From the NCBI GenBank assembly GCA_041287245.1, contig JBEULP010000096.1, positions 1 through 29,942 of the forward strand: a stretch of DNA of 29,942 nt, in the 5' to 3' direction. Source of the stretch: Infirmifilum sp. (GTDB lineage: Archaea > Thermoproteota > Thermoprotei > Thermofilales > Thermofilaceae). The notes under the pieces were generated by a model. That model did no database searches. It was not told the DNA's origin and saw only the letters and a list, made by a program, of their open reading frames with translations. How positions within the stretch are numbered: position 1 is the first letter of the stretch; each line of letters starts with the position of its first letter. This document shows positions 1 through 29,942 of the stretch, one piece after another. The translations under genes were made by a program, and so were the position numbers.

Positions 1-38
1 CCCATCGAGTACCGGGCGCTCCACCTTACAGATCTCAC
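1..38 (-). CDS. ptsH: 5' end of a gene running off the left edge; probably phosphocarrier protein HPr
   Basis: GTG at 38-36 overlaps the ptsI stop (GTGA coupling) and reads MRSVRWSARYSMG. Gly at codon 13 matches HPr G13-L14-H15 spacing. HPr is the only PTS component otherwise missing. The diagnostic His lies outside the window. Confidence 0.4.
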   Translation of the reverse strand, partial: MRSVRWSARYSM

Positions 39-1753
39 TCATAAAAGCTTATTCCACTCTGATTAAGGATTTTCCGGGCCCACTCCACAACCTCCTCTAC
101 AGTCTGTGTCTGCATTAAGACAGCATGTTCTCTCTCACGGAGTTTTCTCATATCCAGCCTCTTCAAGATATACTTGACCTTCCCGACAAACTGTGGGGAC
201 ACGCTTAAGCTCTCAACTCCTAAGGTAAGCAACACTGGAATTGCCAAAGGCTTAGAGGCAGCCTCACCGCAGACCTCGATTTCAGCTCTACCCTTCACGG
301 AGTTTACGGCTAGAGAAATAAGCCTTAGAACAGCAGGGTTTAGCTCATTGTAAAGGTAGCCTACTAGGCTGTTCCCCCTGTCGGCCGCCAACACGTATTG
401 GGTGAGGTCGTTCGTGCCGAAGCTGATAAAACCAAGCCCGCCCTTCCCCACGATTTCTCCCGCTAGGAGCGCGCTAGCAGGCGTCTCAACCATGACTCCA
501 AGCTCCAAATCCCCTGTTTTTACTCCGGCGGAGCTAAGCCTCTCACGCTCCCGCATGACTATTCTCCTAAAATAGTCCACCTCCTCTACTGTGCTGACCA
601 TGGGGAGCATCAGCCTCACCTTCCCGTGAAAAGAGGCCCTCAGCAACGCGCGTACAAGGGGGAGAAGTAGATCCTCCTCATGCTTGAAGAGAAGCCTCGC
701 CCCTCGAAGCCCCAGTTGAGGGTTCTCCTCACTGGGCAGCTCGATAAAGGGGACAGGCTTGTCGCCACCTATATCGGGAGCTCTTACGGTAAGAGGCTTC
801 TCGCCCAGTATTTGGGCGGCTTTCGAGAAAAGGTTGTATAGCTCCTCCTCATCTGGAGGGGAGGAGCGCTCCATATAGACGAATTCTATCCTGAAGAGCC
901 CCACCCCGCCGCACCCGTATTCGCCGAGAATTCTCAGCTCTTCAAAGCTTCCCACGTTGCAGTAGACGTTGACTCTAGACCCGTCCAAGGTAACTGCGTC
1001 GCTCTTAGCCTCTTGCGTAAAAGCCCTTAAGAGCATCTGATACTCTCCTGCCATACGAGCATATCTTCTTAACTCTTCACCGCTCGGCTCCACAACGACG
1101 TATCCGTTCAGACCATCTATCACAGTGTTTGCACCCTCGGTGACGCCTTCAAGGCGCAGGTTTCCAGCTATAACGTACGGTATTCCCCTTAGACGGGCTA
1201 GGATTGCTACATGCGACGTGACGCCGCCTTCTCTGGTTGCCAGCCCCTCAAGGCCGCTATTCGCAAGCTCTAGAAACTCGATGGGGTCTACCTGCTCTGC
1301 AAGGACTATCTTATATTCCCCGCCTATGCCCCTAGACCCCTGCCCCTTTATCAGGAGAACCAGTCTTGAAGCGAGGTCCTGTAGATCCTGGGCCCTCATG
1401 GCGAAAAGCTCGCTGCCCTGCCTGAGCATATCGCTGTACTTCTGGTATACCTGCCGCACAGAATACGCCGCGGTGTAGCCGGCGTTTGATATCAGATCAA
1501 GAGACTCGGAGATTATCGAGTCAAGCATTAGAAGCTGCGCGTCTACAATCTCCTGCTCCTGTCTAGGAAGCAGGCTCTTAATCTGTACAAGCCTTTCCTC
1601 CAGGGCTCTACCAGACGCTCGAAGCTTCTCAGCTTCAGTCTCCGGTTCTCTAGTCTTCTCCTCAGGGATGCTACCTAGAACATCTACTCTCTTCAATACG
1701 TGGGCCTTGCCAATCGCGATTCCAGGTGAGGCAACAATGCCTTTTGCTTGCAC
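35..1753 (-). CDS. ptsI: PTS Enzyme I (phosphoenolpyruvate-protein phosphotransferase)
   Basis: 572 aa with phospho-His motif GGVTSHVAILAR, plus GVGLFRIEF, DIGGDK, EENPQLGLRG, GVMVETP, SFGTNDLTQY and VCGE. Confidence 0.97.
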   Translation of the reverse strand: MQAKGIVASPGIAIGKAHVLKRVDVLGSIPEEKTREPETEAEKLRASGRALEERLVQIKSLLPRQEQEIVDAQLLMLDSIISESLDLISNAGYTAAYSVRQVYQKYSDMLRQGSELFAMRAQDLQDLASRLVLLIKGQGSRGIGGEYKIVLAEQVDPIEFLELANSGLEGLATREGGVTSHVAILARLRGIPYVIAGNLRLEGVTEGANTVIDGLNGYVVVEPSGEELRRYARMAGEYQMLLRAFTQEAKSDAVTLDGSRVNVYCNVGSFEELRILGEYGCGGVGLFRIEFVYMERSSPPDEEELYNLFSKAAQILGEKPLTVRAPDIGGDKPVPFIELPSEENPQLGLRGARLLFKHEEDLLLPLVRALLRASFHGKVRLMLPMVSTVEEVDYFRRIVMRERERLSSAGVKTGDLELGVMVETPASALLAGEIVGKGGLGFISFGTNDLTQYVLAADRGNSLVGYLYNELNPAVLRLISLAVNSVKGRAEIEVCGEAASKPLAIPVLLTLGVESLSVSPQFVGKVKYILKRLDMRKLREREHAVLMQTQTVEEVVEWARKILNQSGISFYE

Positions 1754-1985: not shown

Positions 1986-3134
1986 ATGCGGGTTGTCATT
2001 AAGGGGGGGAGGGTTTTAACCCCGTATGCGGATTTAGGAATAAAGGATGTTCTCATCGAATCGGGGAGGATAGCAAAGATAGGTGACGGTCTGGTCGGGG
2101 ATAGGACAATCGATGCATCGGGGCTCCTCGTGGCTCCCGGCTTTATAGACACGCATTTCCACGGCTACGGGGGCGTTGACTTTACGCTTGCCAGCCCAGA
2201 AGAGATTCTGGAGGTTTCTCGCCGGATCACAAGGCACGGCGTGACAGGCTTCCTCGCCTCTGTAGTCGCAGCTCCCCACGACACCTTGCTTAAAGCCTGT
2301 ACGAGTATAGCTGCCGCGGCCTCGGGTTGGAGGAGTCATGTGGGGGCGCGTGTCATAGGCGTGCACCTTGAGGGCCCTTATCTCAACCCCCAGAAGAAGG
2401 GGGCTATGGACGCTAAATACTTTAAACACCCATCCCCCCAGGAGCTGGTTGAGTTTGCCGATGCCTCGAAGGGGTTCCTTAAACAGATTACTGTAGCGCC
2501 AGAGCTTCCCGGCTCCGAGGAATTTATAAGGGCTGCGGCTTCTCGCGGCATCGTCGTCAGCCTAGGGCATAGTGAGGCGACCTTTGAGGAGGCTTTGAGG
2601 GCCGTGTTGGCAGGTGCTTCAAAGGCTAACCACATTTTCAACCAGATGCGGCAGTTCCACCACCGCGAGCCGGGTCTGGCTATGGCGCTTCTAGAACAGG
2701 AGAATGTCTACATCGAGATGATTTCCGACTTTATACACCTTCACCCTGGGACGATGCGGTTGGTCGCCAGGACAGCAGGTCCAAGCAGGATCGTTTTAAT
2801 AACTGACGCGGTCGCCGCGACAGGACTCCCAGATGGCGAGTACACCCTGGGAGGCCTCAAAATCATCGTGAAGAACGGGGTTTCGCGTTTACCCGACGGT
2901 ACGATAGCGGGAAGCACCCTAACCCTTGACAGAGCAGTTGCAAACATGGTTAAACTAGGTTTTTCCGTGGCGGACGCGATTAGAATGGCGTCCACAAACC
3001 CTGCACAGAGCCTGGGGCTAGGCAGAGAGTATGGCGCCATTGCGCAAGGCTATGCCGCGGATCTCGTTCTCCTGAACGAGAAGCTCGAGGTGGAGAAAAC
3101 CCTAGTGGAGGGCGTTGAAGTCTATAGTAGGTGA
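1986..3134 (+). CDS. nagA: N-acetylglucosamine-6-phosphate deacetylase
   Basis: PGFIDTHFHG, HLEGPY, TVAPE, LGHS, HIFNQM, ITDA, IAGSTLT and NPA motifs. Confidence 0.95.
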   Translation: MRVVIKGGRVLTPYADLGIKDVLIESGRIAKIGDGLVGDRTIDASGLLVAPGFIDTHFHGYGGVDFTLASPEEILEVSRRITRHGVTGFLASVVAAPHDTLLKACTSIAAAASGWRSHVGARVIGVHLEGPYLNPQKKGAMDAKYFKHPSPQELVEFADASKGFLKQITVAPELPGSEEFIRAAASRGIVVSLGHSEATFEEALRAVLAGASKANHIFNQMRQFHHREPGLAMALLEQENVYIEMISDFIHLHPGTMRLVARTAGPSRIVLITDAVAATGLPDGEYTLGGLKIIVKNGVSRLPDGTIAGSTLTLDRAVANMVKLGFSVADAIRMASTNPAQSLGLGREYGAIAQGYAADLVLLNEKLEVEKTLVEGVEVYSR

Positions 3135-3138
3135 CAAC

Positions 3139-4968
3139 ATGGGCGGGTTTTTCGCGGCAGTCTCCCGTTCTAATACAAACGTTATCCCGAAGGTCATAGA
3201 GGGCCTGAAGAGGCTACGGTTTAAGGGTTATGACAGCACGGGAGTCGCCTTAGTGCAAGATGGCGTGCTAAGCATCCACAAGGACGTGGGCTGGGTTGAC
3301 CTCGTCGTCGAAAAGCTCGGCTTAGAGAACCTCACGGGCAGCGTTGCTCTGGGTCACACTAGATACGCTACTCACGGTAGGCCTACTACGGAAAACTCTC
3401 ATCCGTTTTCAGACTGCTGGGGTAGGGTAGCGGTGGCCGGGGACGGCTCTCTAGGGAACTATGAGAGGCTGAAAGACATGGTTCTTATGAGCGGCCACAA
3501 GCTGCAGTCTAGGAGTGATTTCGAGCTGCCTGCGCACCTCCTAGAAGAAATGTTGGAGAAAGAGCAGGCCTTACAACAGGCTCTAGCCAGCCTCGAGACA
3601 CAGCTCGAGGGGTTTTACTCGCTGGCTGTGTTGGAGGCGTACACGTCGAAGATCGGAGCATACTCGAACTCGCTCCCCCTTTATGTCGGCGTATCGAAAG
3701 ACGCTTTCTACCTTACAAACGTTATGACTGCTCTCGCGGGGTTTGCAGAAGACTACATAGTCGTTGACCCCCATGTGATCGCAGTTATCTCTAGCGACGG
3801 TGTGAGGTTTTACAGGGGTGGAGTTGAGCTTCCCACGCCCGTACAACAGCCCCTAAGGGTGGATCCAAGTCTTGTCGACAAAGGCGGTTTCCAGCACCAC
3901 ATGTTACGGGAGATTTACGAGGCACCATTATCGCTTCTAAGATCTCTCTACACGATCCAAGAGAAATACTTGCAGTTGGCTGCGAGGCTTGTATTGGGAG
4001 CGGACAATATTTACATCATCGCGAATGGAACAAGTCTCCACGCCGGAATGGTTGCCTCCTATTACCTCTCAGAGCTCGTAGGTATAAGCCCCGTGGTTAC
4101 AAGTGCGGCTGAATTCCCGCTCTACTATGTTGAGAACGTAGGGCCTGGAAGCCTCGTTATAGCTATATCACAGTCGGGGGAAACTGGAGATGTTCTCTCA
4201 AGCTTATATGAGGCTAAGCTTAGAGGAGCCACGATCCTGGGCCTAACAAACTATATTGGTTCAAGGCTTGCGCGTCTCTCAAACGTTTACCTCCCCATCG
4301 GGGCTGGACCCGAACTTGCAGTCCCCGCAACCAAGACATTTACTTCCACGCTTCTAGTCCTCTATCTTACAGCACTTAAAGCCTCTCAAGAAGCAGGGAA
4401 GACGAGTCCCAGCAATTACCAGGAGAAGATTCAATCAATCAAAGAAACAGCTACCCGTCTCTCCGAGGCGGTTACACGTTTAGATGAAGAGAGCAGGAGG
4501 GCCGTAAAACTCGTTAAGGAGTGCCGAGGAGGATACGTCGTATCTAGAGGAATAACTTACCCGCTAGCCCTAGAAGCGGCACTAAAGCTGAAGGAGGCCT
4601 CATACTTCCACGCGGAAGGAGTAGAGGCTGGCGAGTTTAAGCATGGACCATTCGTCCTCGTCGAGAACGGGTTTTTCACAGGCTTTATTATGCCAGCTGA
4701 AAAACTCTCCGCAGAGGCCACATATCCTCTCATCGCGGCTGCTGTCGACGCCGGCGCCTCAGTAGTGGTTTTCGGATTCGAAGGAGACACAAGTCTATCC
4801 CAGATACAAAGCGATAGATACGCTTTTGTGAAGACACCGGTTACGGAGAGGCACCTAGCGCCTATAGCTTTCTCGTTGCCATTACAACTCTTCGCCTATA
4901 GGCTAGGAGTGGAGCTGGCCAGACCGATAGATACGCCCAGATACTTGACGAAGGCTGTGCTCAGATAA
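3139..4968 (+). CDS. glmS: GlmS-like protein (Ntn glutaminase domain + 2 SIS domains) with degenerate glutaminase site; likely hexosamine-6-phosphate deaminase/isomerase
   Basis: ATG at 3139 follows a GGTGA RBS. GYDSTG, GHTRYATHG, ISQSGET, VPATKTF, ALKLKE, GEFKHGP and PRYLTKAV are present, but the N-terminus is MGGF rather than MCGI. Confidence 0.9.
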   Translation: MGGFFAAVSRSNTNVIPKVIEGLKRLRFKGYDSTGVALVQDGVLSIHKDVGWVDLVVEKLGLENLTGSVALGHTRYATHGRPTTENSHPFSDCWGRVAVAGDGSLGNYERLKDMVLMSGHKLQSRSDFELPAHLLEEMLEKEQALQQALASLETQLEGFYSLAVLEAYTSKIGAYSNSLPLYVGVSKDAFYLTNVMTALAGFAEDYIVVDPHVIAVISSDGVRFYRGGVELPTPVQQPLRVDPSLVDKGGFQHHMLREIYEAPLSLLRSLYTIQEKYLQLAARLVLGADNIYIIANGTSLHAGMVASYYLSELVGISPVVTSAAEFPLYYVENVGPGSLVIAISQSGETGDVLSSLYEAKLRGATILGLTNYIGSRLARLSNVYLPIGAGPELAVPATKTFTSTLLVLYLTALKASQEAGKTSPSNYQEKIQSIKETATRLSEAVTRLDEESRRAVKLVKECRGGYVVSRGITYPLALEAALKLKEASYFHAEGVEAGEFKHGPFVLVENGFFTGFIMPAEKLSAEATYPLIAAAVDAGASVVVFGFEGDTSLSQIQSDRYAFVKTPVTERHLAPIAFSLPLQLFAYRLGVELARPIDTPRYLTKAVLR

Positions 4969-4975
4969 AGCTAAG

Positions 4976-6217
4976 ATGAACAAGATGTTGAGAGCAGGCT
5001 GTGGAAAAGCAATCATTACCCCCGAAGACCCCAAGGGTCACATCCTAGCGGGGTATATCAGGCGGAAAGGGGTCTCCCTAGGGGTCCACGACGACATCTA
5101 TGTGAAAACGCTAATTCTAGAAACTGGGGAGGAGAAGGTCGTTATAGCTAGCTTCGACCTCCTAGGCATTGACGAGCACCTCTACGAATATTCTCATCAC
5201 GTTGCCCGGGAAATAATGGGGGATGAGACGGTACTACTTGTTGCAGGAACACACACGCACTCAGCCCCCGCTACACCCTTCCAATCCCCCCTTCTTACAT
5301 TCGGCTACAGGGCCTTTAGCAAAGATTATTTTGACTACATCCTGGAATCCTTCGAGGACGCGGTCGTTCAAGCAGAGAAGAGTCTTTCACCAGTTAGATT
5401 ACAGATGACTCGCTCCAAAATACTAGGCGTGGCGACCGACCGTGAGGATCCTTCTCGTGAAATCGATGACATCGCCTCACTAATCGTCATGTCATCTACC
5501 CACGGGGAACGATGCGGCTTCCTACACTACGCCGTCCACCCCACAGTGCTAGGTCCAGACAATCTCTACATATCACGAGACTTGGTTGGCTATGCGGCTG
5601 ATTATCTCGAGAAGCACCTAGGGCTGAAAACCTGTCTTTTCCTAAACGGCGCGGCTGGAAACGTCTCCACAAGATTTGTCAGGCGCCAACAGAGCTTCGG
5701 CGAGGCGGAGCGTCTAGGCACACTGCTTGCAGAACAAGTCGCTGAAAATATTCCGGTTAACTCCCGCGATTGGACGGAAGCCGTCAGCTTGCAAATCCAG
5801 CAGCTCCCCGTGGAGATTAGGCTTAAAGCCCCCCTCAGGAAGCTTGAAGAGGCCTCACAGCTCCACATTGAGCAGCGGCCAGAAGAGGGGAGGAAAGCCG
5901 AAGCTGTTGCCGAAGGCGTCGAGCTAATCCAGCGGCTCGCGGAACTGGAAGATTTTCCCACCCATGCGAGAACGGTGATTTCCTTCCTGAGAATTTCAGA
6001 CATCTTCCAGAGCGTGTGGCTGCCCTTCGAGACCCCGTCAACCCTTTCTCTGGAGCTCCGGGAAGCCCAAGCTATACCTACGCTAGTGGTTTCATACGCT
6101 AATGGCTACTTCGCATACATCGCTCCAAGCCACAGCAAGGGCTACGAGAAGGTTTTTGAGCTTATTGAAGACGAGGACAGAAAGAAAATATTTAAGATGA
6201 TTCGAAAGCTGCTGTAA
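4976..6217 (+). CDS. Neutral/alkaline ceramidase-like metallo-amidase
   Basis: GVHDDIYVK, GTHTHSAP, YAVHPT, ISRD, NGAAGNVS and YANGY motifs; no signal peptide; 7 nt after the glmS-like gene. Confidence 0.75.
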   Translation: MNKMLRAGCGKAIITPEDPKGHILAGYIRRKGVSLGVHDDIYVKTLILETGEEKVVIASFDLLGIDEHLYEYSHHVAREIMGDETVLLVAGTHTHSAPATPFQSPLLTFGYRAFSKDYFDYILESFEDAVVQAEKSLSPVRLQMTRSKILGVATDREDPSREIDDIASLIVMSSTHGERCGFLHYAVHPTVLGPDNLYISRDLVGYAADYLEKHLGLKTCLFLNGAAGNVSTRFVRRQQSFGEAERLGTLLAEQVAENIPVNSRDWTEAVSLQIQQLPVEIRLKAPLRKLEEASQLHIEQRPEEGRKAEAVAEGVELIQRLAELEDFPTHARTVISFLRISDIFQSVWLPFETPSTLSLELREAQAIPTLVVSYANGYFAYIAPSHSKGYEKVFELIEDEDRKKIFKMIRKLL

Positions 6218-6272: not shown

Positions 6273-6789
6273 TTGGAAGGAAAATACGTCTTATCTCTCG
6301 ATGAAGGAACCTTTTAAAATGGCTCTGGAGAAGGCTCGTGTGGAACCCAAGGATGTGGCTGCTATAGGCGTCACCAACCAGCGGGAAACTACGATAATTT
6401 GGGATAAGAGGACTGGCAAGCCCGTCTATAATGCAGTGGTATGGCGGTGGAGGAGGACAGCGGAGGTCCAAGTGGCAGAACTAAGAGTCGATGGTGGGGC
6501 CGCTAAAAAACGACTTCCTCATCCAGTTCCAAGCGGATATCCTTGGCGTTAGGGTTATCAGACCGGTGATACTTGAGACTACAACCCTTGGAGCTGCTTA
6601 TCTCGCAGGTCTCGCAGTGGGGTATTGGAAGGATCAGGGTGAAATCGCTAAAATGTGGAAGATGGAAAAGGAATTCCACCCACAGAGGGATGAGGCGACC
6701 AGGGAAAACTCTATGCCGGGTGGAAAGAGGCTGTAAAGAGATCCTTAGAATGGGCTAAAATGCTTAAAGAGATTGGGTTATCCGAATAA
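6273..6789 (+). pseudogene. glpK: Glycerol kinase remnant with two internal deletions and frameshifts
   Basis: Pieces in order: [15 protein letters not shown], then [32 protein letters not shown], then [10 protein letters not shown], then [31 protein letters not shown], then [18 protein letters not shown]..stop. About 170 codons remain versus roughly 500 for intact GlpK. Confidence 0.95.
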
Positions 6790-10186: not shown

Positions 10187-11314
10187 TTAGGCCGCAACAT
10201 CTACGGGGGAGCCCGTTAGGCTTGACCTGTAAAAACCGTCCAGCAAAACCTGGCTGCGAAGGCCGTCCTTGAGATCTGGTACCGGGCTCTCTTTTATCCC
10301 AGCTACGTTCTCAAGGAAATGTTTCAGCAGGATCAGGTACGAGTAGACCCAGCCCTCGAAGCTCTTCGGAGCTGGCCACGTGAGCCAGGGGTAGGTCTCC
10401 TCGAACCCCCCTGTGATCTTCTCGGTTCGGCTGTTTTCCCGTTTAAACAAGTAGAGGGTCTGAGGCTCCGCTATAGTAAACCTAATCCCCCCCTTCGAAC
10501 CATAGATCTCTATGCGCATTTGTTCCTCAAAGCCAGGTGAGACCTTAGACGCTTCGACGCTCCCCGCGGCACCCGATTCATATTCAACTATCGCGAAGCC
10601 AAGGTCCTCTGTGTCAACCCTTACTCTCTGCTTCGACGCGGGATCCCACCTCTCCTTTAGGAGTGTATATCCCCTCCCCCAGATCCTGTTTATCCTCTGA
10701 AGCGTTAGGTACTCTGCGAGGTCGAGCGCATGAACCCCCAGATCTGCTAAAACGCCACCCCCAGCCTCTCGCTTATTCATCCTCCACTCGTAAGGTGTAT
10801 CCTCATAGGCGTGTTTAGCATGGGCTATGACAGCTCTAAACTCGCGGATCTCCCCGATCTCGCCTCTGGATATAATGTCGCGCGCCTGGATTGCGGCCGG
10901 GAGGAAACGCGATACGAGGCATATAGCACCCCTCCTTCCGAGCTTTTCAGCTCTAGCCACCACTTCACGGGCCTCCTCTAAGGAGACAGCAAAGGGCTTT
11001 TCCACGACGATGTCGGAGCCAGACTCTAAGGCTCTAACTGCATATGGAGCATGAGTGTTGTTTGTCGACGAGATTACCACGACATCGAGATCCCCTTTGA
11101 AAAAGGCCGACTCATCTGTAGTCCACTCTCGAAACCCGTATTGTCTCGCGAAAGCCTCGATCTTTCCGGGGCTTCTACTCATCGCACGGGCCATCTCCAC
11201 TTCCGGGAAGCCTCTCTCCCTCACAGTGAACCTTAAAGCGTTTAAGGCCCACGCGACCGCACCGGCAGACCAGCCCGACCCTATTAGGCCTACTCTCAGC
11301 TTCACCCCCAACAC
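10187..11314 (-). CDS. Gfo/Idh/MocA-family NAD(P)-dependent sugar oxidoreductase
   Basis: VGLIGSG, NNTH, VVEKP, GGGVLADLGVHALD, IYGSKG. Confidence 0.92.
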   Translation of the reverse strand: MLGVKLRVGLIGSGWSAGAVAWALNALRFTVRERGFPEVEMARAMSRSPGKIEAFARQYGFREWTTDESAFFKGDLDVVVISSTNNTHAPYAVRALESGSDIVVEKPFAVSLEEAREVVARAEKLGRRGAICLVSRFLPAAIQARDIISRGEIGEIREFRAVIAHAKHAYEDTPYEWRMNKREAGGGVLADLGVHALDLAEYLTLQRINRIWGRGYTLLKERWDPASKQRVRVDTEDLGFAIVEYESGAAGSVEASKVSPGFEEQMRIEIYGSKGGIRFTIAEPQTLYLFKRENSRTEKITGGFEETYPWLTWPAPKSFEGWVYSYLILLKHFLENVAGIKESPVPDLKDGLRSQVLLDGFYRSSLTGSPVDVAA

Positions 11315-11320
11315 CCTGTT

Positions 11321-11824
11321 TTAGAACTTTAGGCTCCGGATTTTCTCCTCCATGTCCACCGGCTTTGGAGGAAAGTCCGGAAGCTGCTGGTAGTAGAGCT
11401 TCACACCCATATCCAGTATCCTAAGCAGGGCCTTATGATCATCTGGGCCTATGTCGAAGGTTTTTTCGATTTTTACACGGCCAGCCCTGTAGCCCATCTG
11501 TCCTAGAAGCACATACTCAACCCGGACGCCCGACTTCTCGAGGAAGTTTGCAACGTCCACGGGATTCTCGAATAGCAGGAGGACTTTCTCGCTGTTGTTC
11601 ATGGATTTTGCTTTTTGAGCTGCTTCGTCTACTTTGAGAACGGCGACGGAGATCCCGGGCGGGGCTAGCATTATCTGAAGCTGTTTAAGAGCCGGGTTAC
11701 TTGCAATCTTGTCGTTAACCACCCAGATTGAGGTGGCGCCGAACTTTTTGGTCCAGGCGGCTGTAACCTGACCGTGAATAAACCTGTCGTCAATGCGAAT
11801 AAAGATGTTCTGTTTAGAAGACAT
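11321..11824 (-). CDS. PTS mannose/fructose/sorbose-family IIB component
   Basis: RIDDRFIHGQV phospho-His motif; ATG at 11824 follows an AGGTGA RBS. Confidence 0.95.
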   Translation of the reverse strand: MSSKQNIFIRIDDRFIHGQVTAAWTKKFGATSIWVVNDKIASNPALKQLQIMLAPPGISVAVLKVDEAAQKAKSMNNSEKVLLLFENPVDVANFLEKSGVRVEYVLLGQMGYRAGRVKIEKTFDIGPDDHKALLRILDMGVKLYYQQLPDFPPKPVDMEEKIRSLKF

Positions 11825-11841
11825 ACAATTCACCTGCTGAT

Positions 11842-12297
11842 TTAGCTTTTAACCTTTTTGATAAGTTGTCTAATAAGTGATTTCTCCTCGGACTTCCCCT
11901 CAGCAGCAATTTCTTGAAGCTCTTTTCCAACAAAGCCTCTAACCCCCTCCCTCCCAGCCTTCCAGACGCTGGACATAAGTTGTTGAAAGTCCCCCGTGTC
12001 GTTCGATAGGAGCTCAATCACCATAGCCATGTTGAACCCTGTCAGGACTGCCCTAGCTTTTCCCTCCTGTAGAAGCATGAGCGCAGCTCTGCTTGGAGTT
12101 CCCCCAAACAGGTCTACGAGGATAACTGTGTCATTACCTGCAACTTTTGCTAGCTTGTCATAGTAATTCTCAAGGCTTTCGCCCTCGACTAGCTCTACAC
12201 ACGTGGCTTTTTCACGGACGGAAACGCCTAGAATCATTGCCACTGCGTTGATCATCTCACACCCGAGATTACCGTGAGAAGCCAGGACGACCCTCAA
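11842..12297 (-). CDS. PTS mannose-family IIA component
   Basis: VVLASHG (phospho-His), LVDLFGGTP, TGFNMAM. Confidence 0.95.
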   Translation of the reverse strand: MRVVLASHGNLGCEMINAVAMILGVSVREKATCVELVEGESLENYYDKLAKVAGNDTVILVDLFGGTPSRAALMLLQEGKARAVLTGFNMAMVIELLSNDTGDFQQLMSSVWKAGREGVRGFVGKELQEIAAEGKSEEKSLIRQLIKKVKS

Positions 12298-12304
12298 GCC
12301 CCGT

Positions 12305-13189
12305 TCACCTCAAATGTGACATAGCAATCCGCTTATAAGTGTGTCTAACCCCGCGGACAGCAACCGAAAGCTCGAGTATATTTTCAGGAACAGCAATCCC
12401 CATCGAGTACCCAGAGTCGCCGATGTGGTGAATATCGCACCCACATTCTTTAGAGTGGAGAGCAATATACCTTATTACCTCTCTTTGCGCACCTTCTTGA
12501 GATGTCCCAATAGTGCACATTGCTAGGGAATCATATTTTTCAGCAAGGGCAACAGCCTTTGAAACACTTTCAGGAGTAGCGCCTGGGACGGTAAAGGGGG
12601 CTGGTACCAGGATGCCGTCAGCGCCTCTCACCAGGACCTCCTCTATTAAGCTTAGATCAAACATTTTTTCAGTCTTTAAGCCTCCGCTGTGCATTTTTCC
12701 GCCGAACAATAACGCCTTATCTTGTACCACCTGTCTAGCTTTATCGACGCCCTCAGCTATCCGCCTCCACGTGACCCCTAAACCAGGGTTCCCTGTAACA
12801 ACAATCAAGCGTGAACCGAGCTTCAAGCTTCCAAGGATGGTGTCCTCGGATAATCTTCTCCCCTCTGGTATTAAGCCCGCCTCTACAGGCTCAAGGTTAT
12901 TCCCGACGAAACGCTGGGTAAACTGGGATATTCCCCTAATTGTAGCGTATTCACTAGGTACACCCTCGACCTTAGGGTTTAGAACATCATACATGTTCAA
13001 GATTATAATATCCGCACCAAACCTCGCCGCCAGCTCTACGTTTGACGTACCGTCTACAAGCGGAGTAGACGTTGCTACCACCTCAACCGCAACTACCCTA
13101 CCCTCAGAAGATTTAACCGCTTCTTTGAAGCCTTTTGGCTCAATATGTTCGAGATCCTTCCCAGTTAGATCTAAGACCCTTTTCGGCAT
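12305..13189 (-). CDS. Conserved uncharacterised TIM-barrel-like protein of PTS loci
   Basis: Alternating beta/alpha pattern with GADIIILN, GNNLEP, TGNPG, GKMHSGG, GADGILVPAP, GTSQEGA, HHIGDSG and RGVRHTY. First gene of the IIA-IIB-oxidoreductase operon. Confidence 0.7.
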   Translation of the reverse strand: MPKRVLDLTGKDLEHIEPKGFKEAVKSSEGRVVAVEVVATSTPLVDGTSNVELAARFGADIIILNMYDVLNPKVEGVPSEYATIRGISQFTQRFVGNNLEPVEAGLIPEGRRLSEDTILGSLKLGSRLIVVTGNPGLGVTWRRIAEGVDKARQVVQDKALLFGGKMHSGGLKTEKMFDLSLIEEVLVRGADGILVPAPFTVPGATPESVSKAVALAEKYDSLAMCTIGTSQEGAQREVIRYIALHSKECGCDIHHIGDSGYSMGIAVPENILELSVAVRGVRHTYKRIAMSHLR

Positions 13190-13281
13190 ATCTCAACAAC
13201 TTTTTACTTTATATCAATGGCATATAATATTAGCTTAAAACGAAACATTTATATAAAAAAAAAGTGTCGCAAATTTATTGT
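13190..13281. promoter_or_regulatory. Divergent archaeal promoter region
   Basis: AT-rich; CGAAAC followed by TTTATATA at about 13241-13255 upstream of ATG 13282, with TATA-like sequence on the minus strand upstream of 13189. Confidence 0.65.
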
Positions 13282-14883
13282 ATGACAACAATAGGACCAG
13301 TAGAAGTGGGAATTCTCGGACTCCTAGCCTTCATCTTCGGCCTTGACTACATCTGGGTCACACCTCTAGGCATCTGGCGCCCAGTGGTTGCAGGCACGCT
13401 CACAGGCCTGATTCTAGGAGACCCCATTACGGGGTTGGTGGTAGGCTCACTGCTCGAGTTTGTCTTTGCAGGGCTTTTCACCATTGGTGGGGGAACGGTT
13501 CCCGAAGCTGCCACCGGAACAATTGCATCTGTGGTCGTTGCCGTCGCAACGGGGCTTAGGCCGGAGGCCGCAGTTCCTCTAGCCATCCCAGTAGCTGTGT
13601 TAACCATGAACCTCGAAATCGTAGTAAGGTCGTTTGACGCAGTGTTCACTCACTGGGCGGACGCCGAGATAGAGCGCGGAAACTACGATAAAATCCCCCT
13701 CATAAACATCTTAGGCGCGTTTCCTTGGGGGCTTAGCCGCGCCATTCCAATATGGGCGTTCGTAGGTGCACTTGCAATAAACCCCCAGGGAGTAAAGTCC
13801 TTCATCGATGCCCTCCAGGTTGTTCAAATCGGCCCTCTAACGGTAAGGTTCTGGGATGCGATGGCTGTAGCCGGCGCCGTACTGCCGGCGCTAGGTGCTG
13901 CAATAATGATGAAAATGATGCTCTCCAGGGAGACTGTGGCTTTCTACATCCTCGGTTTCGCATTAGCCGCATACCTAAAGCTTAGTCTCCTCGCCATCGC
14001 CCTCGTTGCCGGCTCAATAATCTTTGCGCTATATCTCTTCACCCACAGAGAAGCCTTTGAACAATTAAGGCTGGGGGGTGGTGCCACAACCGCGGGGACA
14101 GCAACCTCAAAGGACTTCTTCAGATGGTTCGGCCTCTCGTGGTTCATCCAGTCCTCTTGGAACTATGAGAGAATGATGGGTACGGGCTTTGCGCACGGCA
14201 TGCTCGAGATCGAGAAGAAGCTCCGCAAAGATCCGGAGGAGCTTAAGTCTTGGATGAGGCTACACAACGAGTTTTACAACACAGAACCACACGTCCACAA
14301 CGCAATCTATGGTATGGTTATATCTCTAGAGGAACAGGGCGCAGACCAGGACGTCATACGAGGCGTCAAGACAGCCTTAATGGGGCCTTTCGCCGGACTT
14401 GGAGACTCAATGCTGTGGTTCACTATACTCCCCATCGCCTTCCTCCTCGGGGCATCGCTGGGGGTTGAGAGAAACCTACTAGGACCACTCGTAGCGTTGG
14501 TGATCTGGATACCTGTCTCCTGGGCTATCAAGTACTACAGTCTCGTATACGGCTACAAGTACGGTTTATCGCTCTCAGAGGTGCTAAAGGGAGACGTCCT
14601 TAAGATCTTCCGGGAAGCCGTAATGGCCTTTGCAATGGCCGTAATAGGAGGGATTACCGCAACCTACGTCCGAGCAACTACGCCGATTATTCTCGCACAG
14701 TATGCTGGCCACGCGATTAAGCTACAGCCAATACTTGACCAGCTTATGCCCTCACTACTCCCATTGCTCTTCACACTCTTCACCTACTGGCTAATCAAGA
14801 ATAAGGGCTACAGCTACGGGAAAGCAGTGATAGTCCTCTTCCTACTCGCCTTCGTCCTCGCAATCCTAGGAGTCCTCGGATAA
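13282..14883 (+). CDS. Fused PTS mannose-family IIC-IID permease
   Basis: IIC motifs RPVVAGTLTGLILGD..GSLLE and GAVLPALG, then IID motifs QSSWNYERMMGTGF, HNEFYNTEP and KTALMGPFAGLGDS in one ORF. Confidence 0.95.
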   Translation: MTTIGPVEVGILGLLAFIFGLDYIWVTPLGIWRPVVAGTLTGLILGDPITGLVVGSLLEFVFAGLFTIGGGTVPEAATGTIASVVVAVATGLRPEAAVPLAIPVAVLTMNLEIVVRSFDAVFTHWADAEIERGNYDKIPLINILGAFPWGLSRAIPIWAFVGALAINPQGVKSFIDALQVVQIGPLTVRFWDAMAVAGAVLPALGAAIMMKMMLSRETVAFYILGFALAAYLKLSLLAIALVAGSIIFALYLFTHREAFEQLRLGGGATTAGTATSKDFFRWFGLSWFIQSSWNYERMMGTGFAHGMLEIEKKLRKDPEELKSWMRLHNEFYNTEPHVHNAIYGMVISLEEQGADQDVIRGVKTALMGPFAGLGDSMLWFTILPIAFLLGASLGVERNLLGPLVALVIWIPVSWAIKYYSLVYGYKYGLSLSEVLKGDVLKIFREAVMAFAMAVIGGITATYVRATTPIILAQYAGHAIKLQPILDQLMPSLLPLLFTLFTYWLIKNKGYSYGKAVIVLFLLAFVLAILGVLG

Positions 14884-23905: not shown

Positions 23906-25185
23906 ATGGATAAAAAATATAAATGGTTCGTAGTAATCTTCTTCTTCACCTTCCTATCCTTCCACGAGGCAGACCGCTTCATAATCTCTGCAGTCGCCCC
24001 GGATGTGGAGAAGGAGTTCCAGGTATCGCACGCACAACTAGGCCTTGTCTTCTCACTCACGGTTCTCTCGTGGCCGCAGTCCTCTACCCCATATGGGGGT
24101 ATCTCTACGACCGATACTCCAGGAGGATTCTAGCAGGACTAGCCGCGATGATCTGGGGTTTCACCACCATTTTCAACGCATTAAGCAGAACTTTCGACCA
24201 ATTCTTCGCAACCAGGATGGCTACAGGTGTTGATGACGCGGCTCCCCCGGGGATATACAGCCTGGTTGCAGACTACTTCGAGCCCTACGACAGGGGGAAG
24301 GCCATGGGCATCATTAACGCATCCAGTCCTATTGGTGCAATCCTCGGGACGATTCTTGCATTATCAATCGTGTCAGCCGGCTATTCGTGGAGAAACGCCT
24401 TCTACATCACCGGTCCTATCGGCGTCCTAATAGGGGTTTTAACAATTCTAATGATCAAGGATATCCCGCGGGGCAGCTCGGAGCCAGAACTTGAGGGGCT
24501 TCTAACTGAAGACCTGTACAAGGCGAGGCTCTCCGACCTCCCAAAACTGTTGAAAAACAGATCCCTGCTCCTCTTATACCTGCAGGGGTTCTGGGGGGTC
24601 TTCCCGTGGAACGCCATAACCTTCTGGATTATAACCTACATGGAGCTGGAGAGAGGTCTTGATCCAGGGTTCGTCATGGTCACCATGGTCTCGTGGCTTA
24701 TCGCAATGACCGTTGGGAACATCTTCGCCGGCTATGTGGGCGATAAGCTGTTCAAAAGGACAAAGCGAGGCAGGGCAATGTTCGGAGCCGTAGTTGTCCT
24801 GTTTTCAGCCATTCTAATATACCTGACTATAAATGCCCCGACGACGACAGAGTTTTTCATCTTTGGGCTACTAACAGCCTTTGAGATACCTATGGCTGGG
24901 CCGAACGTCTCCGCGGCGATAACTGACGTCACCGAGCCCGAGTTGAGGGCAAGCGCGACAGGCTATCTGAGGTTCTTTGAGAACATAGGCAGTGCCGTCT
25001 CACCAGCCCTCACAGGTTTCATCGCGGAGGGGCTGTCCCTCGGAAAGGCTATAATGTTGGTAAGCGTCTCCACCTGGCTTCTATGCTTTATCTTTTTCAC
25101 AATATTAGCCATCATAATCCCAAAAGATATAGATAGGCTGAGAAGCGTTATACAGGATAGAAAGAGGAGGCTTACGGGTGAATGA
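23906..25185 (+). pseudogene. MFS sugar transporter split by one frameshift at about 24064-24069
   Basis: MDKKYKWFVVIFFF..HEADRF..LGLVFSLTVL continues in another frame as VAAVLYPIWGYLYDRYSRR (MFS motif A). The junction is a (TC)3 run. Confidence 0.85.
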
Positions 25186-25186
25186 T

Positions 25187-26746
25187 ATGTTCCCGAAGAA
25201 GTTCATGTGGGGCGTGTCCCTAGCCGGCTTCCAGTTCGAGATGGGGAACCCTTCGGGCGACGCTGTGGATCCCAACACAGACTGGTACGCCTGGGTCCAC
25301 GATGAAAACAACATTAAAAGGAGAATCGTAAGCGGAGACCTACCTGAAAACGGTGTCGACTACTGGCACCGCTTCCGCGAGGATCACGACATTGCCAGGT
25401 CAATAGGGATGAACACGTACCGCCTCAACGTGGAGTGGAGCCGTGTCTTCCCCAAATCCACCTTTAGCGTTGATATCCAAGTGGAAAGAGATGAAAATGT
25501 CCTGGTAAAAGCGGATCTAGACGAGAACGACTTGTCACAGCTCGACTCCCTGGCCGACAAGGTGGCCGTCGAGCACTATCGTGAAGTGATACGCGACCTG
25601 CGCGAGAAGGGGTTCCTGGTAATATTAAACCTGGTACACTTCACACTTCCAATCTGGCTCCACGACCCGCTCCAGGCTAGGGCTACAAACCTTAAAAAGG
25701 GGCCCCTCGGCTACGCCGACCCCCGCTTTCCCGTAGAGTTCGCGAAGTTCGCCGCGTACGCAGCGTGGAGGTTCGGAGACCTGGTAGACATGTGGTCTAC
25801 CTTTAACGAGCCCAGCGTGGTAGCCGAGGCAGGCTTCCTCTTCAAAAACGGTAAATTCCCGCCCGGGGTCTTTAACTTCCAGGGGTATAGGAGGGCACTT
25901 CTCAACATAGCCCAGGCCCACGTCCTCGCATACCATCTTATAAAAAGGCTCGATAAGGCGAAAGCCTACCCTGATAGCCCAAGCCCCGCCGAGGTGGGCA
26001 TCATCCACAACATGATACCCTTCTACCCCTTCGACGAAAAGAAAACGCGGGATAGGATCGCTGCCAAGTTCGCAGACCACCTGCACAACAGGTGGGTTTT
26101 AAACGCCATATCCCGGGGCTGGGTAGACTCTAACACGGACATGCACGAGGAGCCAAGCGAGGTCTTCGAGTCCTACAAGGGGCGCGTGGACTGGATAGGC
26201 GTCAACTACTACTCGAGGCAGGTCGTCCGGGGAAAGCTAAACCCCCTCGCGTTTCTCTTGGGGCTACCTGCTTTCCCAGAGATGGTTAAGGGTTACGGCA
26301 ACGAGTGCACCCCCAACTCTAAGAGCCTCGCGGGCAGACCCACGTCGGACTTCGGCTGGGAGATCTACCCTGAGGGTTTAGCCGAGGTTCTAGACATAGC
26401 CAACGAGTACGGCAAGCCCGTGCTCGTCACTGAGAACGGCATAGCCGACGCGGAGGACAGGCTTCGACCCCACTTCATAGCACTCCACCTCAAGGTTTTA
26501 GAAACCTATCTCGACCGTGGAGGTAAGGTTAACGGGTATCTCCACTGGGCCCTAATTGACAACTACGAGTGGGCAGAAGGCTTCCGGATGAAGTTCGGCT
26601 TATACGCTGTGGACCTCTCTAGTAAAAGGAGGATTAAAAGGCCAAGCGCAGACCTGCTAGCCAAAATAATAGCCGAGGGACATGTTCCAGAGGAAAGGGT
26701 TAGAGAGGCCCTGGAGCGGGTTCCAGGCGTCAGGCTCCCCGAATAA
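25187..26746 (+). CDS. Glycoside hydrolase family 1 (archaeal beta-galactosidase/beta-glycosidase type)
   Basis: WGVSLAGFQFEMG, acid/base TFNEP, GVNYYSR, nucleophile VTENG, DNYEWAEG; ATG 25187 follows GGTGA. Confidence 0.95.
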   Translation: MFPKKFMWGVSLAGFQFEMGNPSGDAVDPNTDWYAWVHDENNIKRRIVSGDLPENGVDYWHRFREDHDIARSIGMNTYRLNVEWSRVFPKSTFSVDIQVERDENVLVKADLDENDLSQLDSLADKVAVEHYREVIRDLREKGFLVILNLVHFTLPIWLHDPLQARATNLKKGPLGYADPRFPVEFAKFAAYAAWRFGDLVDMWSTFNEPSVVAEAGFLFKNGKFPPGVFNFQGYRRALLNIAQAHVLAYHLIKRLDKAKAYPDSPSPAEVGIIHNMIPFYPFDEKKTRDRIAAKFADHLHNRWVLNAISRGWVDSNTDMHEEPSEVFESYKGRVDWIGVNYYSRQVVRGKLNPLAFLLGLPAFPEMVKGYGNECTPNSKSLAGRPTSDFGWEIYPEGLAEVLDIANEYGKPVLVTENGIADAEDRLRPHFIALHLKVLETYLDRGGKVNGYLHWALIDNYEWAEGFRMKFGLYAVDLSSKRRIKRPSADLLAKIIAEGHVPEERVREALERVPGVRLPE

Positions 26747-27659
26747 GCCTGATATAATTCCTACCCATCCTCTTTTCGAGCACTACTATCCCACGGGACT
26801 CCAGCTTCCTAATGTGGCGCCAGACGGTCGTAGCCGGCAGTCCAAGCGTGCTGGTAAGCTCTGACTGGAACATGCCCCCACCTGCCCTCCTAATAACCTC
26901 AATTATCTGGGTGTCAACCTCAGAGAGCTCCTCCCTCTCCCGCCGCCTCAGGATGAAGTACAGGATGACAACCATAATGACTATGATTATGGATGCGATA
27001 TAGAGGGGGTTAAACCCAGCCCATTGCACCGATGGGGTGACAGAAGGCTGTGTACTCGGGCCAGCAGGCGCTTCGGGAGGCTTTGGAGAAGAGGGTTGTT
27101 GGGAGGGCGCGGTCGGGGTCGGTTGACTGCTCGGCTTAGAGGTTGCCTGAGAGGGTGGGAGAATATATCCTATTAATACTGGACCTGGCTTAAAGGAGAG
27201 TATTATACTGCCCCCCTGGGTTGAAATACTGTCTGGGACTGTGTATATAGCGGACAAAGTAGCGTTAGGCGGCAGCTTCAACTGGACAGGTAGAGGTGAG
27301 GTGAAATTGACGATCCACCTCCCAGCAACCTTAGACGTGACAGTCGAAGTATAATAGTCTACTGTTACCTGTGCCGAGTCAAGGGTTATAATGGTCATAT
27401 CGCCCTGTGTCTGATTTATAGAGTAGGGTAGAGTTTCCCCCTTTTCGTTTTCCACAAGGATAACCATGCCAGGGTCAGGCTGACCTATAAGTCCCAGGTC
27501 GATCACAGCCGACCCGTTCGTCGGAAAAGTATAGATAACGTGGGCGCTACCGTCTATGTATACCTCTACCTTTACTAGACCCTGTGGCGCGGCGGCCAGG
27601 AACCCTGCCATGAGAAGTGAGATGAGCATGGCGATCAAGCTAGCCTTATTTGCAAGCAT
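26730..27659 (-). CDS. Membrane-anchored protein with C-terminal winged-HTH (predicted membrane-associated regulator)
   Basis: Signal peptide, beta-rich domain with N-x-S/T sequons, Pro/Ser/Thr linker, TM helix followed by RRR, then FQSEL..LGLPATTVWRHIRKLESRG. Confidence 0.8.
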   Translation of the reverse strand: MLANKASLIAMLISLLMAGFLAAAPQGLVKVEVYIDGSAHVIYTFPTNGSAVIDLGLIGQPDPGMVILVENEKGETLPYSINQTQGDMTIITLDSAQVTVDYYTSTVTSKVAGRWIVNFTSPLPVQLKLPPNATLSAIYTVPDSISTQGGSIILSFKPGPVLIGYILPPSQATSKPSSQPTPTAPSQQPSSPKPPEAPAGPSTQPSVTPSVQWAGFNPLYIASIIIVIMVVILYFILRRREREELSEVDTQIIEVIRRAGGGMFQSELTSTLGLPATTVWRHIRKLESRGIVVLEKRMGRNYIRLIRGA

Positions 27660-27711
27660 AACTTTTCCACTTGGATTCCACTATTAAAAAATAACGTAAG
27701 CTGGGTAGCCA

Positions 27712-28725
27712 CTAGGGCCTACAAACCCTCCCCCTGGGCTTCTCAGATCCCTTTTCGAGGTCGAGGAAAGCTTTCTCGAGAGCCTTTCGCAGCTCCGACG
27801 CCTTTTGCTCGGGTAGAGAGTCGTAGGTGAAAACCCAGCCTCCCCACTCGATCGAGGCAGGGTATTTCAACTTGTCCGCGGAGCGGTTAACCGGGTAGAA
27901 CTCTACGTGTAGGTGGAAGCCTTCGTATCCGCGGCAAGGCTTCTGGTGAAAAACCATCATGTAAGGCAGGCTGGAGTCGAAGAGCCTGTTATAAGCAGCG
28001 GTAACCATCCTTAAAGCGTCGGCTAGGTTTTCAACCTCACCCTCGCTGAGCTGCGCCAGCGTCTCGACGTGCCTCCCCGGGTACACGTGAACCTCGTACG
28101 GCCACATGGCGAAAAACGGCAGGAAAGCCTTGAAGTCATCGTTCGCGTAGAGCATCCTTACCCGCTCAGCCTCCTCCAACTTTAGAATATCGCACAACAG
28201 GCAAGTCCCGCGTTTTTCCCTGTGTGCCTGCATCATGCTATACTCCCGGCTGACACGCGGCGGGACGAAAGGCAAGATATAGACCTGCGAGTGGGGATGG
28301 GTAAGTGATACCCCGACAGCTTCTCCCTTGTTCCTAAAGGGAAAAACGTACTCTATTCTTGGATCGCTACAGTATCGGCTTGTAAGCTGCGACAGTACTT
28401 TAATGTATTTTACAAGGTTTTCGAAGGGCAGGCTATCCAGGTCCCCCTCGTGCTCAGGGGTCTCTACTACAACCTTAGCGTAACCATAGCCCTCCTTAAC
28501 AATGTATATATCATTGCTCTCTCGTGAGGCAACGGCGTCCGGCGTTAAAGCAGGATACTTGTTGTCGAGAACGATCACGTCCCACCCGAAGCCAGTCTCC
28601 TCTGCCCCGGGGCAGAACGGGCACTTCTCTACGCTGCGCCAAGGCCTAACGGCCCTCCTACTCGCAACTACGACCCAGGTGCCAAGTAGGGGGTTCCAAC
28701 GCAGCTCGTTAAAAGTGTTTTCCAC
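27712..28725 (-). CDS. galT: Galactose-1-phosphate uridylyltransferase
   Basis: ELRWNPLLG, CPFCPG, NKYP, NKG..GVSLTHPHSQ. Start set at GTG 28725 because the longer ORF overlaps galK. Confidence 0.93.
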   Translation of the reverse strand: MENTFNELRWNPLLGTWVVVASRRAVRPWRSVEKCPFCPGAEETGFGWDVIVLDNKYPALTPDAVASRESNDIYIVKEGYGYAKVVVETPEHEGDLDSLPFENLVKYIKVLSQLTSRYCSDPRIEYVFPFRNKGEAVGVSLTHPHSQVYILPFVPPRVSREYSMMQAHREKRGTCLLCDILKLEEAERVRMLYANDDFKAFLPFFAMWPYEVHVYPGRHVETLAQLSEGEVENLADALRMVTAAYNRLFDSSLPYMMVFHQKPCRGYEGFHLHVEFYPVNRSADKLKYPASIEWGGWVFTYDSLPEQKASELRKALEKAFLDLEKGSEKPRGRVCRP

Positions 28726-28760
28726 GTGAAGTTTATTTCCACAGATACCATTAATGCCTT

Positions 28761-29942
28761 GTGGAACCCCCAGCGGAACTGTTCGCATCTCTACGACGCA
28801 GACCCCAGATGGTATCATCGGCCCCCGGGAGAGTAGACTTCCTAAATACACACCAGGACTACAAGGGCCTACCAGTGGTGCCCGTAGCAATTAACCTTAG
28901 GACCTACATTGCCGTGGTAGAGGATAGCGGAAAATTCGAGGTAACCAGTCTAAACCTCAAGGAGAAAGGCGTAGAACACCGTGATGCTTTCCCTCCCTCT
29001 AACCCCCGCCTAAGAGAGGGGAAGTGGTGGGGGAACTACCTTAGGGCGTGTGTAATAGCGCTACAGAGAAAAAAGGGCGTGAAGCTCCAAAGGGGCTTTA
29101 AAGCGGTCGTTTACAGCCAGGTTCCCGTGGGTTCAGGCCTCTCGAGCAGCGCCGCGTTAGAGGTGTCTTTCTTAAAGGCTATAGACGAGTACTTCAACCT
29201 GGGCTTAACCACCGAGGAACTAGCTGAGACTGCGTTCTACGCCGAGAACGAGGTTATGGGCATACCCTGTGGAAGGCTAGACCAATATGCCTCTGCGTAC
29301 GGGGGAGTAATCCTCCTCTACCCTCGCCCCCCAGTGCGCGTCGAACCGCTAGACTTCGGCCACCTTGACCTCGTCGTCGTGGATTCAGGGATAAGCCACA
29401 GCGTCAGCGAGATACACCCTGTAAGGCAGGCTGAAATAAACGAGGCCCTAAGGCTCCTAAGAGGGATGGAGGACCTACCGTTAACCACACGACTAAAGCT
29501 CGGCGCCACTTTCGAAGACACGGCTTGGGATGAGATAGCATACCACGAAATCAAGAACTATGTTGAAAGGCTCCCTACCGCCCTTGCAAACCGGGTAGTC
29601 TTCACGCTCCTCATGCATGAGTCGACAATGCGTGTCATAGCTAAGGCACGTGCCGGGAGCCTTGACGCGGAGACCCTGGCTGAGGAGGTAAACCGCCAAC
29701 ACGAGTTCCTCAGAGACTTATACGAGGTCAGCCTCCCACAGCTTGAGTCAATCAGGAATGCAATGCTCCAGGCTGGAGCACAAGCCGCCAAGATTAGCGG
29801 CGCCGGCATGGGCGGAAGCCTACTAGCGTTGACTCGCAGCGAGGCTGAAGCGAAGAGAACAGTACTACAGAAAGCCATGGAAGCCGGTGCAAGGCAAGGC
29901 TGGTTCGCCGTCCAAGACAGAGGAGCATCAATCGACTTCCAC
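28761..29942 (+). CDS. galK: Galactokinase-family GHMP sugar kinase, open to the window edge (not in the ORF track)
   Basis: Open frame from GTG 28761 (or ATG 28809): SAPGRVDFLNTHQDY, PVGSGLSSSAA, PCGRLDQ, LRDLYEVS, KISGAGMGG. Confidence 0.9.
   Translation, partial: MEPPAELFASLRRRPQMVSSAPGRVDFLNTHQDYKGLPVVPVAINLRTYIAVVEDSGKFEVTSLNLKEKGVEHRDAFPPSNPRLREGKWWGNYLRACVIALQRKKGVKLQRGFKAVVYSQVPVGSGLSSSAALEVSFLKAIDEYFNLGLTTEELAETAFYAENEVMGIPCGRLDQYASAYGGVILLYPRPPVRVEPLDFGHLDLVVVDSGISHSVSEIHPVRQAEINEALRLLRGMEDLPLTTRLKLGATFEDTAWDEIAYHEIKNYVERLPTALANRVVFTLLMHESTMRVIAKARAGSLDAETLAEEVNRQHEFLRDLYEVSLPQLESIRNAMLQAGAQAAKISGAGMGGSLLALTRSEAEAKRTVLQKAMEAGARQGWFAVQDRGASIDFH

Follow-up and report, generated by a model that had tools for sequence, protein, structure and literature searches.

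Which reaction does a GlmS carry out once it has lost the cysteine that splits glutamine? The question is raised by a gene directly behind nagA in a contig of the hot-spring archaeon Infirmifilum sp., here analysed as a single window of 29,942 nt (Table 1). The gene is mis-annotated: databases name its product a synthase, and the glutamine-splitting Cys is absent. The original prediction proposed that the protein instead deaminates GlcN-6-P to Fru-6-P and NH3, and the residues, phylogeny and gene distribution described below suggest that it is probably the GlcN-6-P deaminase of a GlcNAc uptake pathway.

Table 1. Features of the window that bear on the GlmS-like gene, with the basis of each assignment.
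Feature	Coordinates	Strand	Basis
ptsI, PTS enzyme I, divergent from nagA	35..1753	-	TIGR01417 above cut-off
nagA, N-acetylglucosamine-6-phosphate deacetylase	1986..3134	+	TIGR00221, 312 bits, cut-off 226
GGTGA ribosome-binding-like word, overlapping the nagA stop	3130..3134	+	sequence
Cys-less full-length GlmS paralogue	3139..4968	+	609 aa, Ntn/GATase-2 ~aa 2-236, two SIS ~aa 247-609
Gly codon GGC at the catalytic Cys1 position	3142..3144	+	sequence
G101-D102-G103 for His97-Asn98-Gly99 of the oxyanion-hole segment	3439..3447	+	alignment
ceramidase-like amidohydrolase	4976..6217	+	PF04734; 7 nt gap
Gfo/Idh/MocA oxidoreductase, mannose-family PTS IIB and IIA, DUF7916 protein	10187..13189	-	profile matches
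fused mannose-family PTS IIC-IID permease	13264..14883	+	PF03609 and PF03613

The open reading frame contains no internal stops, begins with MGGFF and can be aligned with E. coli GlmS over its full length; Pfam recognizes an Ntn domain and two SIS domains, and the protein passes the glmS equivalog model TIGR01135 with 449 bits (cut-off 418). As predicted, Gly stands in place of the catalytic Cys1 and the HNG motif is altered: A100-G101-D102-G103 aligns with V-H-N-G of E. coli, so that the glutaminase-side changes include Cys1→Gly2 and His97-Asn98-Gly99→Gly101-Asp102-Gly103 (E. coli numbers first). That list was correct as far as it went and overlooked Trp74→Tyr76, Arg26→Lys29, Thr606→Leu608 and a C-tail that is shorter by one residue. 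The glutamine pocket retains Arg75, Thr78, His79, His88 and Asp127. The isomerase residues said to be kept were all located in the translation (SQSGET at 344, LKLKE at 482, KHGP at 501, and LTKAV with its C-terminal Lys at 603), and the sugar site retains Ser299, Ser344, Gln345, Ser346, Lys483, Glu486, His502 and Lys605. The E. coli positions Arg26, Arg73, Asn98, Asp123 and Asn600-Glu608 are those that we take to be standard, and they fit this alignment. The available text of PMC9272926 supplies the numbering of Cys1, Trp74, Glu488, His504 and Lys603, and that of PMC10201695 supplies Ser303 and Ser347. An AlphaFold model is confident in both domains (pLDDT 94.3, pTM 0.93) and retrieves E. coli GlmS on top in Foldseek, with the C1A form first; the isomerase domain superimposes on that of C1A GlmS with an rmsd of about 2.5 Å, and the domain orientation differs over the full length.

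The 4 nt spacing behind nagA holds exactly, with nagA ending at 3134 and the ATG lying at 3139. This ATG is supported as the start by the GGTGA word 4 nt ahead of it, which we take to be an archaeal Shine-Dalgarno motif. Another start that would restore an N-terminal Cys was ruled out; the upstream TTG (3115) yields none either.

A sequencing error or a decaying pseudogene could account for the missing Cys, as TGC→GGC is one base change and frameshifts or truncations occur in a few relatives (G030, G108 and G076). The orthologues speak decisively against it. Across an alignment of 130 rows (the 120 best homologues and 10 loci), 123 rows start with Gly-Gly and 7 are gapped there, while the Asn98 position is occupied by Asp in 126, by Glu in 1 and by a gap in 3. 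After dereplication at 90%, Gly1 and Asp98 are each found in 115/115 clade sequences, compared to Cys1 and Asn98 in 79/79 canonical sequences (59 bacterial, 20 archaeal); the concern that close orthologues might retain Cys1 is thereby settled. Gly1 is encoded by all four codons (GGC, GGA, GGG and GGT) across the orthologues, and dN/dS is well below 1 in both domains. Contigs from three hot-spring runs show no other letters in the N-terminal part, these runs belonging to one study that may include the source sample and hence not being independent. Sequencing error was accordingly rejected via the orthologues, and error or decay together almost certainly do not explain the gene.

The same 115 sequences show which parts of GlmS have been kept. 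S299, S344, Q345, S346, K483, E486, H502 and K605 are invariant; the Trp74 channel-gate position is Tyr in 84, Phe in 28 and Ser in 3; and Asn600, Ala602 and Val607 of the C-tail are not conserved. Near the sugar site, Pro396 (for Ala400) and Val352 are clade-specific invariant changes. In a FastTree phylogeny, 67 clade loci group together with a support of 0.91 (L018, a mislabelled canonical row, removed), and the clade is archaeal. Among named homologues, those from Infirmifilum and Thermofilum are the closest, and named members occur in Ignisphaera, Thermosphaera, Zestosphaera, Desulfurococcaceae and Sulfolobales, where they are labelled as synthase or SIS proteins. A check for other Cys-less Ntn families among the best 150 representatives returned the Gly/Asp pattern in 5, canonical Cys/Asn in 133 and unclear or other patterns in 12. 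Two side observations concern unusual copies. G076 carries a 5′-truncated, SIS-only clade copy (L225:6445-7470(+)) that hardly differs from the full-length G079 copy, both genomes being without nagA, and it may be read as a recent truncation; otherwise, the best short matches to natural SIS-only clade members are largely labelled partial or lie on short contigs. Separately, the canonical-type GlmS of family f12 (L019, L020 and L022-L024) starts with MCRI and has LEYGG replacing LEYRG, such that its Arg26 appears to have moved to position 2.

The surroundings of the gene point to amino sugar catabolism. The product of NagA is the predicted substrate of the Cys-less protein, and the ceramidase-like amidohydrolase gene, present at the same position in several same-genus loci, is probably the third gene of the same operon. 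The order nagA, Cys-less gene, ptsI is conserved in six same-genus genomes; a seventh (G002, 81% complete) has only a partial match with a lower score. HPr lies just outside the window start on the overlapping contig C86 (G000:C86:79154-79465(+)), and the fused IIC-IID permease is likely an amino sugar importer. With IIA and IIB at 11321-12297(-), the archaeal mannose-family PTS is thus complete (EI, HPr, IIA, IIB and fused IIC-IID), and the end of C86 that overlaps the window start also bears a SIS_2 gene (77784-78530, minus strand), as it does in relatives. The ceramidase-like gene, the Gfo/Idh/MocA gene (10187-11314(-)) and the DUF7916 gene (12305-13189(-)) accompany the PTS cluster in same-genus genomes. 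Here, the PTS/nagA cluster is split by a GlpA/GlpB-like FAD oxidoreductase cluster that relatives lack at this place and that is preceded by a glpK (glycerol kinase) remnant at 6301-6736(+), consisting of two short pieces (model positions ~57-120 and 412-488) with the middle lost. At the far end, positions 25178-29942 hold a galactoside-use cluster with a GH1 beta-glycosidase, a GalT-like uridylyltransferase and an ORF that, judged from its sequence, is presumably galactokinase-like. Three same-genus genomes have a gene for glutamine synthetase ~4-5 kb away from the clade gene (L036:2743-4014, L037:3106-4380 and L038:3018-4346), and its product could recapture released ammonia. A PTS has already been noted in Thermofilum pendens, and its relatives are implied to have GlcNAc-use enzymes, in the available part of PMC2678158.

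The same cluster leaves some room for a different substrate, where the protein would be a deaminase or isomerase of another hexosamine phosphate (GalN-6-P to tagatose-6-P, as with AgaS, or ManN-6-P) or an FrlB-like deglycase of amino-acid-sugar phosphates. The PTS belongs to the mannose family, AgaF is the best, weak match of its IIA (66 bits, cut-off 130), the cluster includes the ceramidase-like amidohydrolase and the Gfo/Idh/MocA enzyme, and the invariant Pro396 and Val352 lie near the sugar site. However, the protein has no match to AgaS and only 34 bits to FrlB, compared to 449 bits to GlmS; the Schiff-base Lys is retained; and G003 has a separate SIS-only gene by a GatZ/KbaZ-like gene, while its clade gene lies by nagA. 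Such a substrate is therefore improbable.

The host genome is 99.99% complete, with 5% contamination. A second, Cys1-containing glmS, which the original prediction had suggested looking for, was found on contig C29; it is canonical (MCGI and HNG), adjoins a GlmU-like gene and a glycosyltransferase gene, and covers GlcN-6-P biosynthesis. The absence of nagB from the window extends to the whole host genome, in which a search with PF01182 gave no match to NagB, and GlmD, a SIS-only deaminase and SIS-only double-SIS proteins were likewise not found there. The genome also carries glnA. These genes bear on the possibility that the Cys-less protein is an ammonia-dependent GlcN-6-P synthase, backing up GlmS under high ammonia or scarce glutamine. 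Its sugar site is complete, and one genome (G186) shows the clade copy only. In principle the reaction can also run in either direction, as glmS loss is suppressed by overexpressed NagB according to the available part of PMC11822699. But the host owns both glnA and canonical glmS, and the gene is coupled to nagA and the PTS rather than to glmM or glmU, which makes a synthase role rather improbable, somewhat more so than another substrate.

The distribution of the gene across genomes argues for the deaminase assignment. Among 86 genomes of its own class, each at least 85% complete, the clade gene occurs in 18, nagA in 25 and both in 17; nagA is present in 17/18 genomes with the clade gene versus 8/68 others, and the link also holds in genera g30 and g31, in which the two genes lie at a distance from each other. 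NagB was found in 0/86 of these genomes. The 8 nagA genomes without an intact clade copy comprise 4 with a SIS-only GlmS-like gene, 1 with a frameshifted clade copy (G030, 14 kb from nagA) and 3 with neither. In a second class, 201 genomes were sampled around a Sulfolobales record, with clade calls resting on a score gap (704 vs 563 bits) and starts checked on a fetched subset. The clade gene occurs in 82, nagA in 71 and both in 54, such that nagA is found in 54/82 clade genomes versus 17/119 others; it lies within 1.5 kb of the clade gene in 22 and within 12 kb in 27. Fisher p-values for these co-occurrences overstate their significance, as the genomes are related.

Further, the genomes that have nagA and no intact clade copy appear to use a substitute. 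In the second class, 13 of 17 such genomes bear a SIS-only GlmS-like gene, which lies 3 nt from nagA in G124 and 13 nt in G221 and is fused to it in G106, where NagA and a SIS-only GlmS-like domain pair are joined in one 771-aa protein (L260:470-2785(-), contig C18); G108 has a SIS-only gene plus a frameshifted clade copy. The remaining 4 of the 17 have no partner, and in two of these nagA is at a contig end. Conversely, at most 3 of the 54 genomes with both clade gene and nagA have more than two GlmS-like matches among the matches listed (E 1e-36), a threshold that distant SIS proteins can miss. The pattern suggests that one pathway step has undergone non-orthologous replacement, and together with the co-occurrence it supports the predicted deaminase reaction.

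Several distributions nevertheless count against a deaminase. No nagA was found at E 1e-9 in 28/82 second-class clade genomes, nor in G079, and five of the nagA-less genomes carry the clade gene on large single contigs; in G036, the gene next to nagA is SIS-only and the clade copy lies at another place, and G108 has the arrangement given above. In the nagA-less genomes, GlcN-6-P from another source may be deaminated, or the enzyme may be used differently. A PIG-L deacetylase is present in 8/28 of them and 20 have neither deacetylase, and the clade gene's neighbours are mostly housekeeping genes (20/28 fetched, 14 annotated at least partly). Elsewhere, its neighbours are catabolic (GH116/GH31/MupG, asparaginase-2/GH130, a BadF-type kinase and a PIG-L deacetylase). 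By hand count, PIG-L is found in 36/82 clade genomes versus 10/119 others, and in G102, which lacks nagA, a PIG-L family deacetylase gene (L209:9522-10187(-)) is convergent with the clade gene. The ammonia-dependent synthase draws some support from the nagA-less genomes, since glnA was not found in 6/28 of them versus 7/173 others (related draft genomes), though 22/28 do have it; loss of glutamine synthetase as a driver was rejected, with glnA in 188/201 genomes and in the host genome.

In the proposed pathway, the mannose-family PTS would import GlcNAc and phosphorylate it to GlcNAc-6-P, NagA would strip the acetate to yield GlcN-6-P, and the intact SIS site would convert GlcN-6-P to Fru-6-P and NH3 by running the GlmS isomerase chemistry in reverse, as in NagB-II and GlmD. 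His502 would open the ring, Glu486 would act as the base and Lys605 would form the Schiff base, as in GlmS and NagB-II; the available part of PMC10201695 reports that NagB-II employs the equivalents of Ser303, Ser347, Glu488 and His504. Against this route, the accessible text of PMC9272926 calls canonical GlmS irreversible and states that it cannot work with free ammonia, so that a reverse activity would require the remodelling to be real. In favour of it, a Cys→Ala GlmS fails to complement E. coli ΔglmS ΔnagB according to what is available of PMC11822699. With the Trp74 channel gate and the coupling residues of the C-tail lost, glutamine would no longer control the sugar site and ammonia could escape. 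The N-terminal domain would then be mainly a folded scaffold that orders the C-loop, possibly with amino-acid binding retained.

The glutaminase domain itself has evolved under relaxed constraint, yet the sequences indicate that purifying selection persists. In a comparison of 33 within-genus pairs, the paralogue has an Ntn/SIS distance ratio of 2.05, against 1.24 in the canonical GlmS that these genomes carry, and its ratio is the higher one in 30/33 pairs. Where dS is unsaturated, the Ntn dN/dS is about 0.07-0.47. At least 95% conservation is reached at 21/235 Ntn positions in the clade, compared to 51 in canonical GlmS; the conserved positions include Gly1, Gly2, Gly27, Arg73, Gly78, Asp98, Gly99, Asp123 and Glu125. 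Of the Cys, Asn, Gly and Thr residues named for glutamine hydrolysis in the available part of PMC7000685, the clade retains Gly only, and Thr76/His77 is replaced by Ser/Arg in 40/115 sequences. The Q-loop subtype tracks nagA, which is present in 18/20 genomes with Thr-His (as here) and 3/23 with Ser-Arg, in a sample picked with nagA status known. Cys93 was considered as a substitute nucleophile and rejected: it is invariant in the clade, but likewise in all 20 archaeal canonical rows.

Why the domain is kept has a plain scaffold explanation, since R-loop and Q-loop residues of the glutaminase domain keep the C-loop ordered above the sugar site (PMC7000685, in the part available). The core of the ligand pocket (Arg73/Asp123/Gly99) is invariant in the clade, and a possible role as a glutamine or amino-acid sensor is compatible with these data. 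A new ligand role is hinted at mainly by the invariant Asn→Asp swap, which could equally make a salt bridge to the free N-terminus. In a sensor, Arg73, Asp123 and Gly99 would hold an amino-acid backbone, Gly1 would make room, and the invariant Asp98 would recognize the side-chain amide or amine of glutamine, ornithine or lysine, such that nitrogen status would gate the breakdown of amino sugars by way of the domain coupling inherited from GlmS. A third GlcN-6-P deaminase architecture of this kind, with the glutaminase domain turned into an amino-acid-sensing regulator and the protein a living intermediate between GlmS and SIS-only deaminases, is an unlikely extension. Pocket invariance would also suit a non-catalytic, regulatory partner of canonical GlmS, acting in a hetero-oligomer or as a metabolite sensor, and a second full-length GlmS match accompanies the clade gene in 18/18 own-class genomes (Cys start confirmed in 16). 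However, GlmS is near-universal here, making that co-occurrence weakly informative; the clade keeps every SIS catalytic residue, and its SIS domains evolve no faster than canonical ones (distance in close pairs 0.27 vs 0.30), leaving a regulatory partner very improbable.

If correct, the deaminase assignment supplies the GlcN-6-P deaminase that GlcNAc use has lacked in two classes of thermophilic archaea, where no NagB was found, and corrects a systematic mis-annotation, as the glmS equivalog model accepts the protein and its named relatives are all labelled synthase or SIS proteins. Deamination by SIS-fold chemistry is already known. A full-text literature search by titles and abstract starts, with subscription papers largely missing from it, found no description of a natural Cys-less full-length GlmS. 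The clade would offer a natural experiment on why GlmS runs in one direction only and cannot accept ammonia, and it clearly exemplifies a half-dead enzyme maintained by selection.

Compared to GlmS/GFAT (EC 2.6.1.16; TIGR01135; PDB 2j6h, 1jxa and 3ooj), the protein has the same architecture and length, shares the isomerase residues and is about 30% identical to the E. coli enzyme by structure alignment. It differs through the clade-wide absence of Cys1 and the changes Asn98→Asp, His97→Gly and Trp74→Tyr/Phe, and through loss of the Asn600/Ala602/Val607/Glu608 C-tail; its gene sits with nagA and the PTS, while true glmS is elsewhere in the genome. It thus has the domains and isomerase residues of GlmS but falls short of what defines that enzyme, lacking Cys1, Asn98, the Trp74 gate and the conserved C-tail, and GlmS activity in the sense of glutamine-dependent GlcN-6-P synthesis is predicted to be absent. 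The engineered C1A GlmS (3ooj) has in it a natural counterpart. NagB-I of E. coli (PF01182) has the same predicted reaction and the same step after NagA, with an unrelated fold. AgaS (a GalN-6-P deaminase) and FrlB (a fructoselysine-6-P deglycase) are catabolic enzymes with the GlmS-type SIS pair that act behind PTS uptake; they are SIS-only, in contrast to the full-length GlmS architecture here. The closest functional parallels are Thermococcus GlmD (NF041128) and Shewanella NagB-II (NF046059; PDB 8eol and 3hba), which have the same catalytic Ser/Ser/Glu/His (S299, S344, E486 and H502 here; PMC10201695, in the part available), the same predicted reaction and the same place beside nagA. The linkage to GlcNAc deacetylase and uptake genes that marks these enzymes is found at this locus and, across the clade, is strong and incomplete. 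They are ~325-370 aa long without an Ntn domain, whereas the present protein has 609 aa with one, and it scores far under both model cut-offs (61 bits of 580 for GlmD and 116 of 430 for NagB-II), which counts against a deaminase. The clade shares a relaxed C-tail with archaeal SIS-only genes, but its placement as their sister has a support of only 0.67, and descent of the SIS-only deaminases from it was dropped. Overall, the comparison suggests that the protein most likely acts like GlmD and NagB-II yet belongs to neither family.
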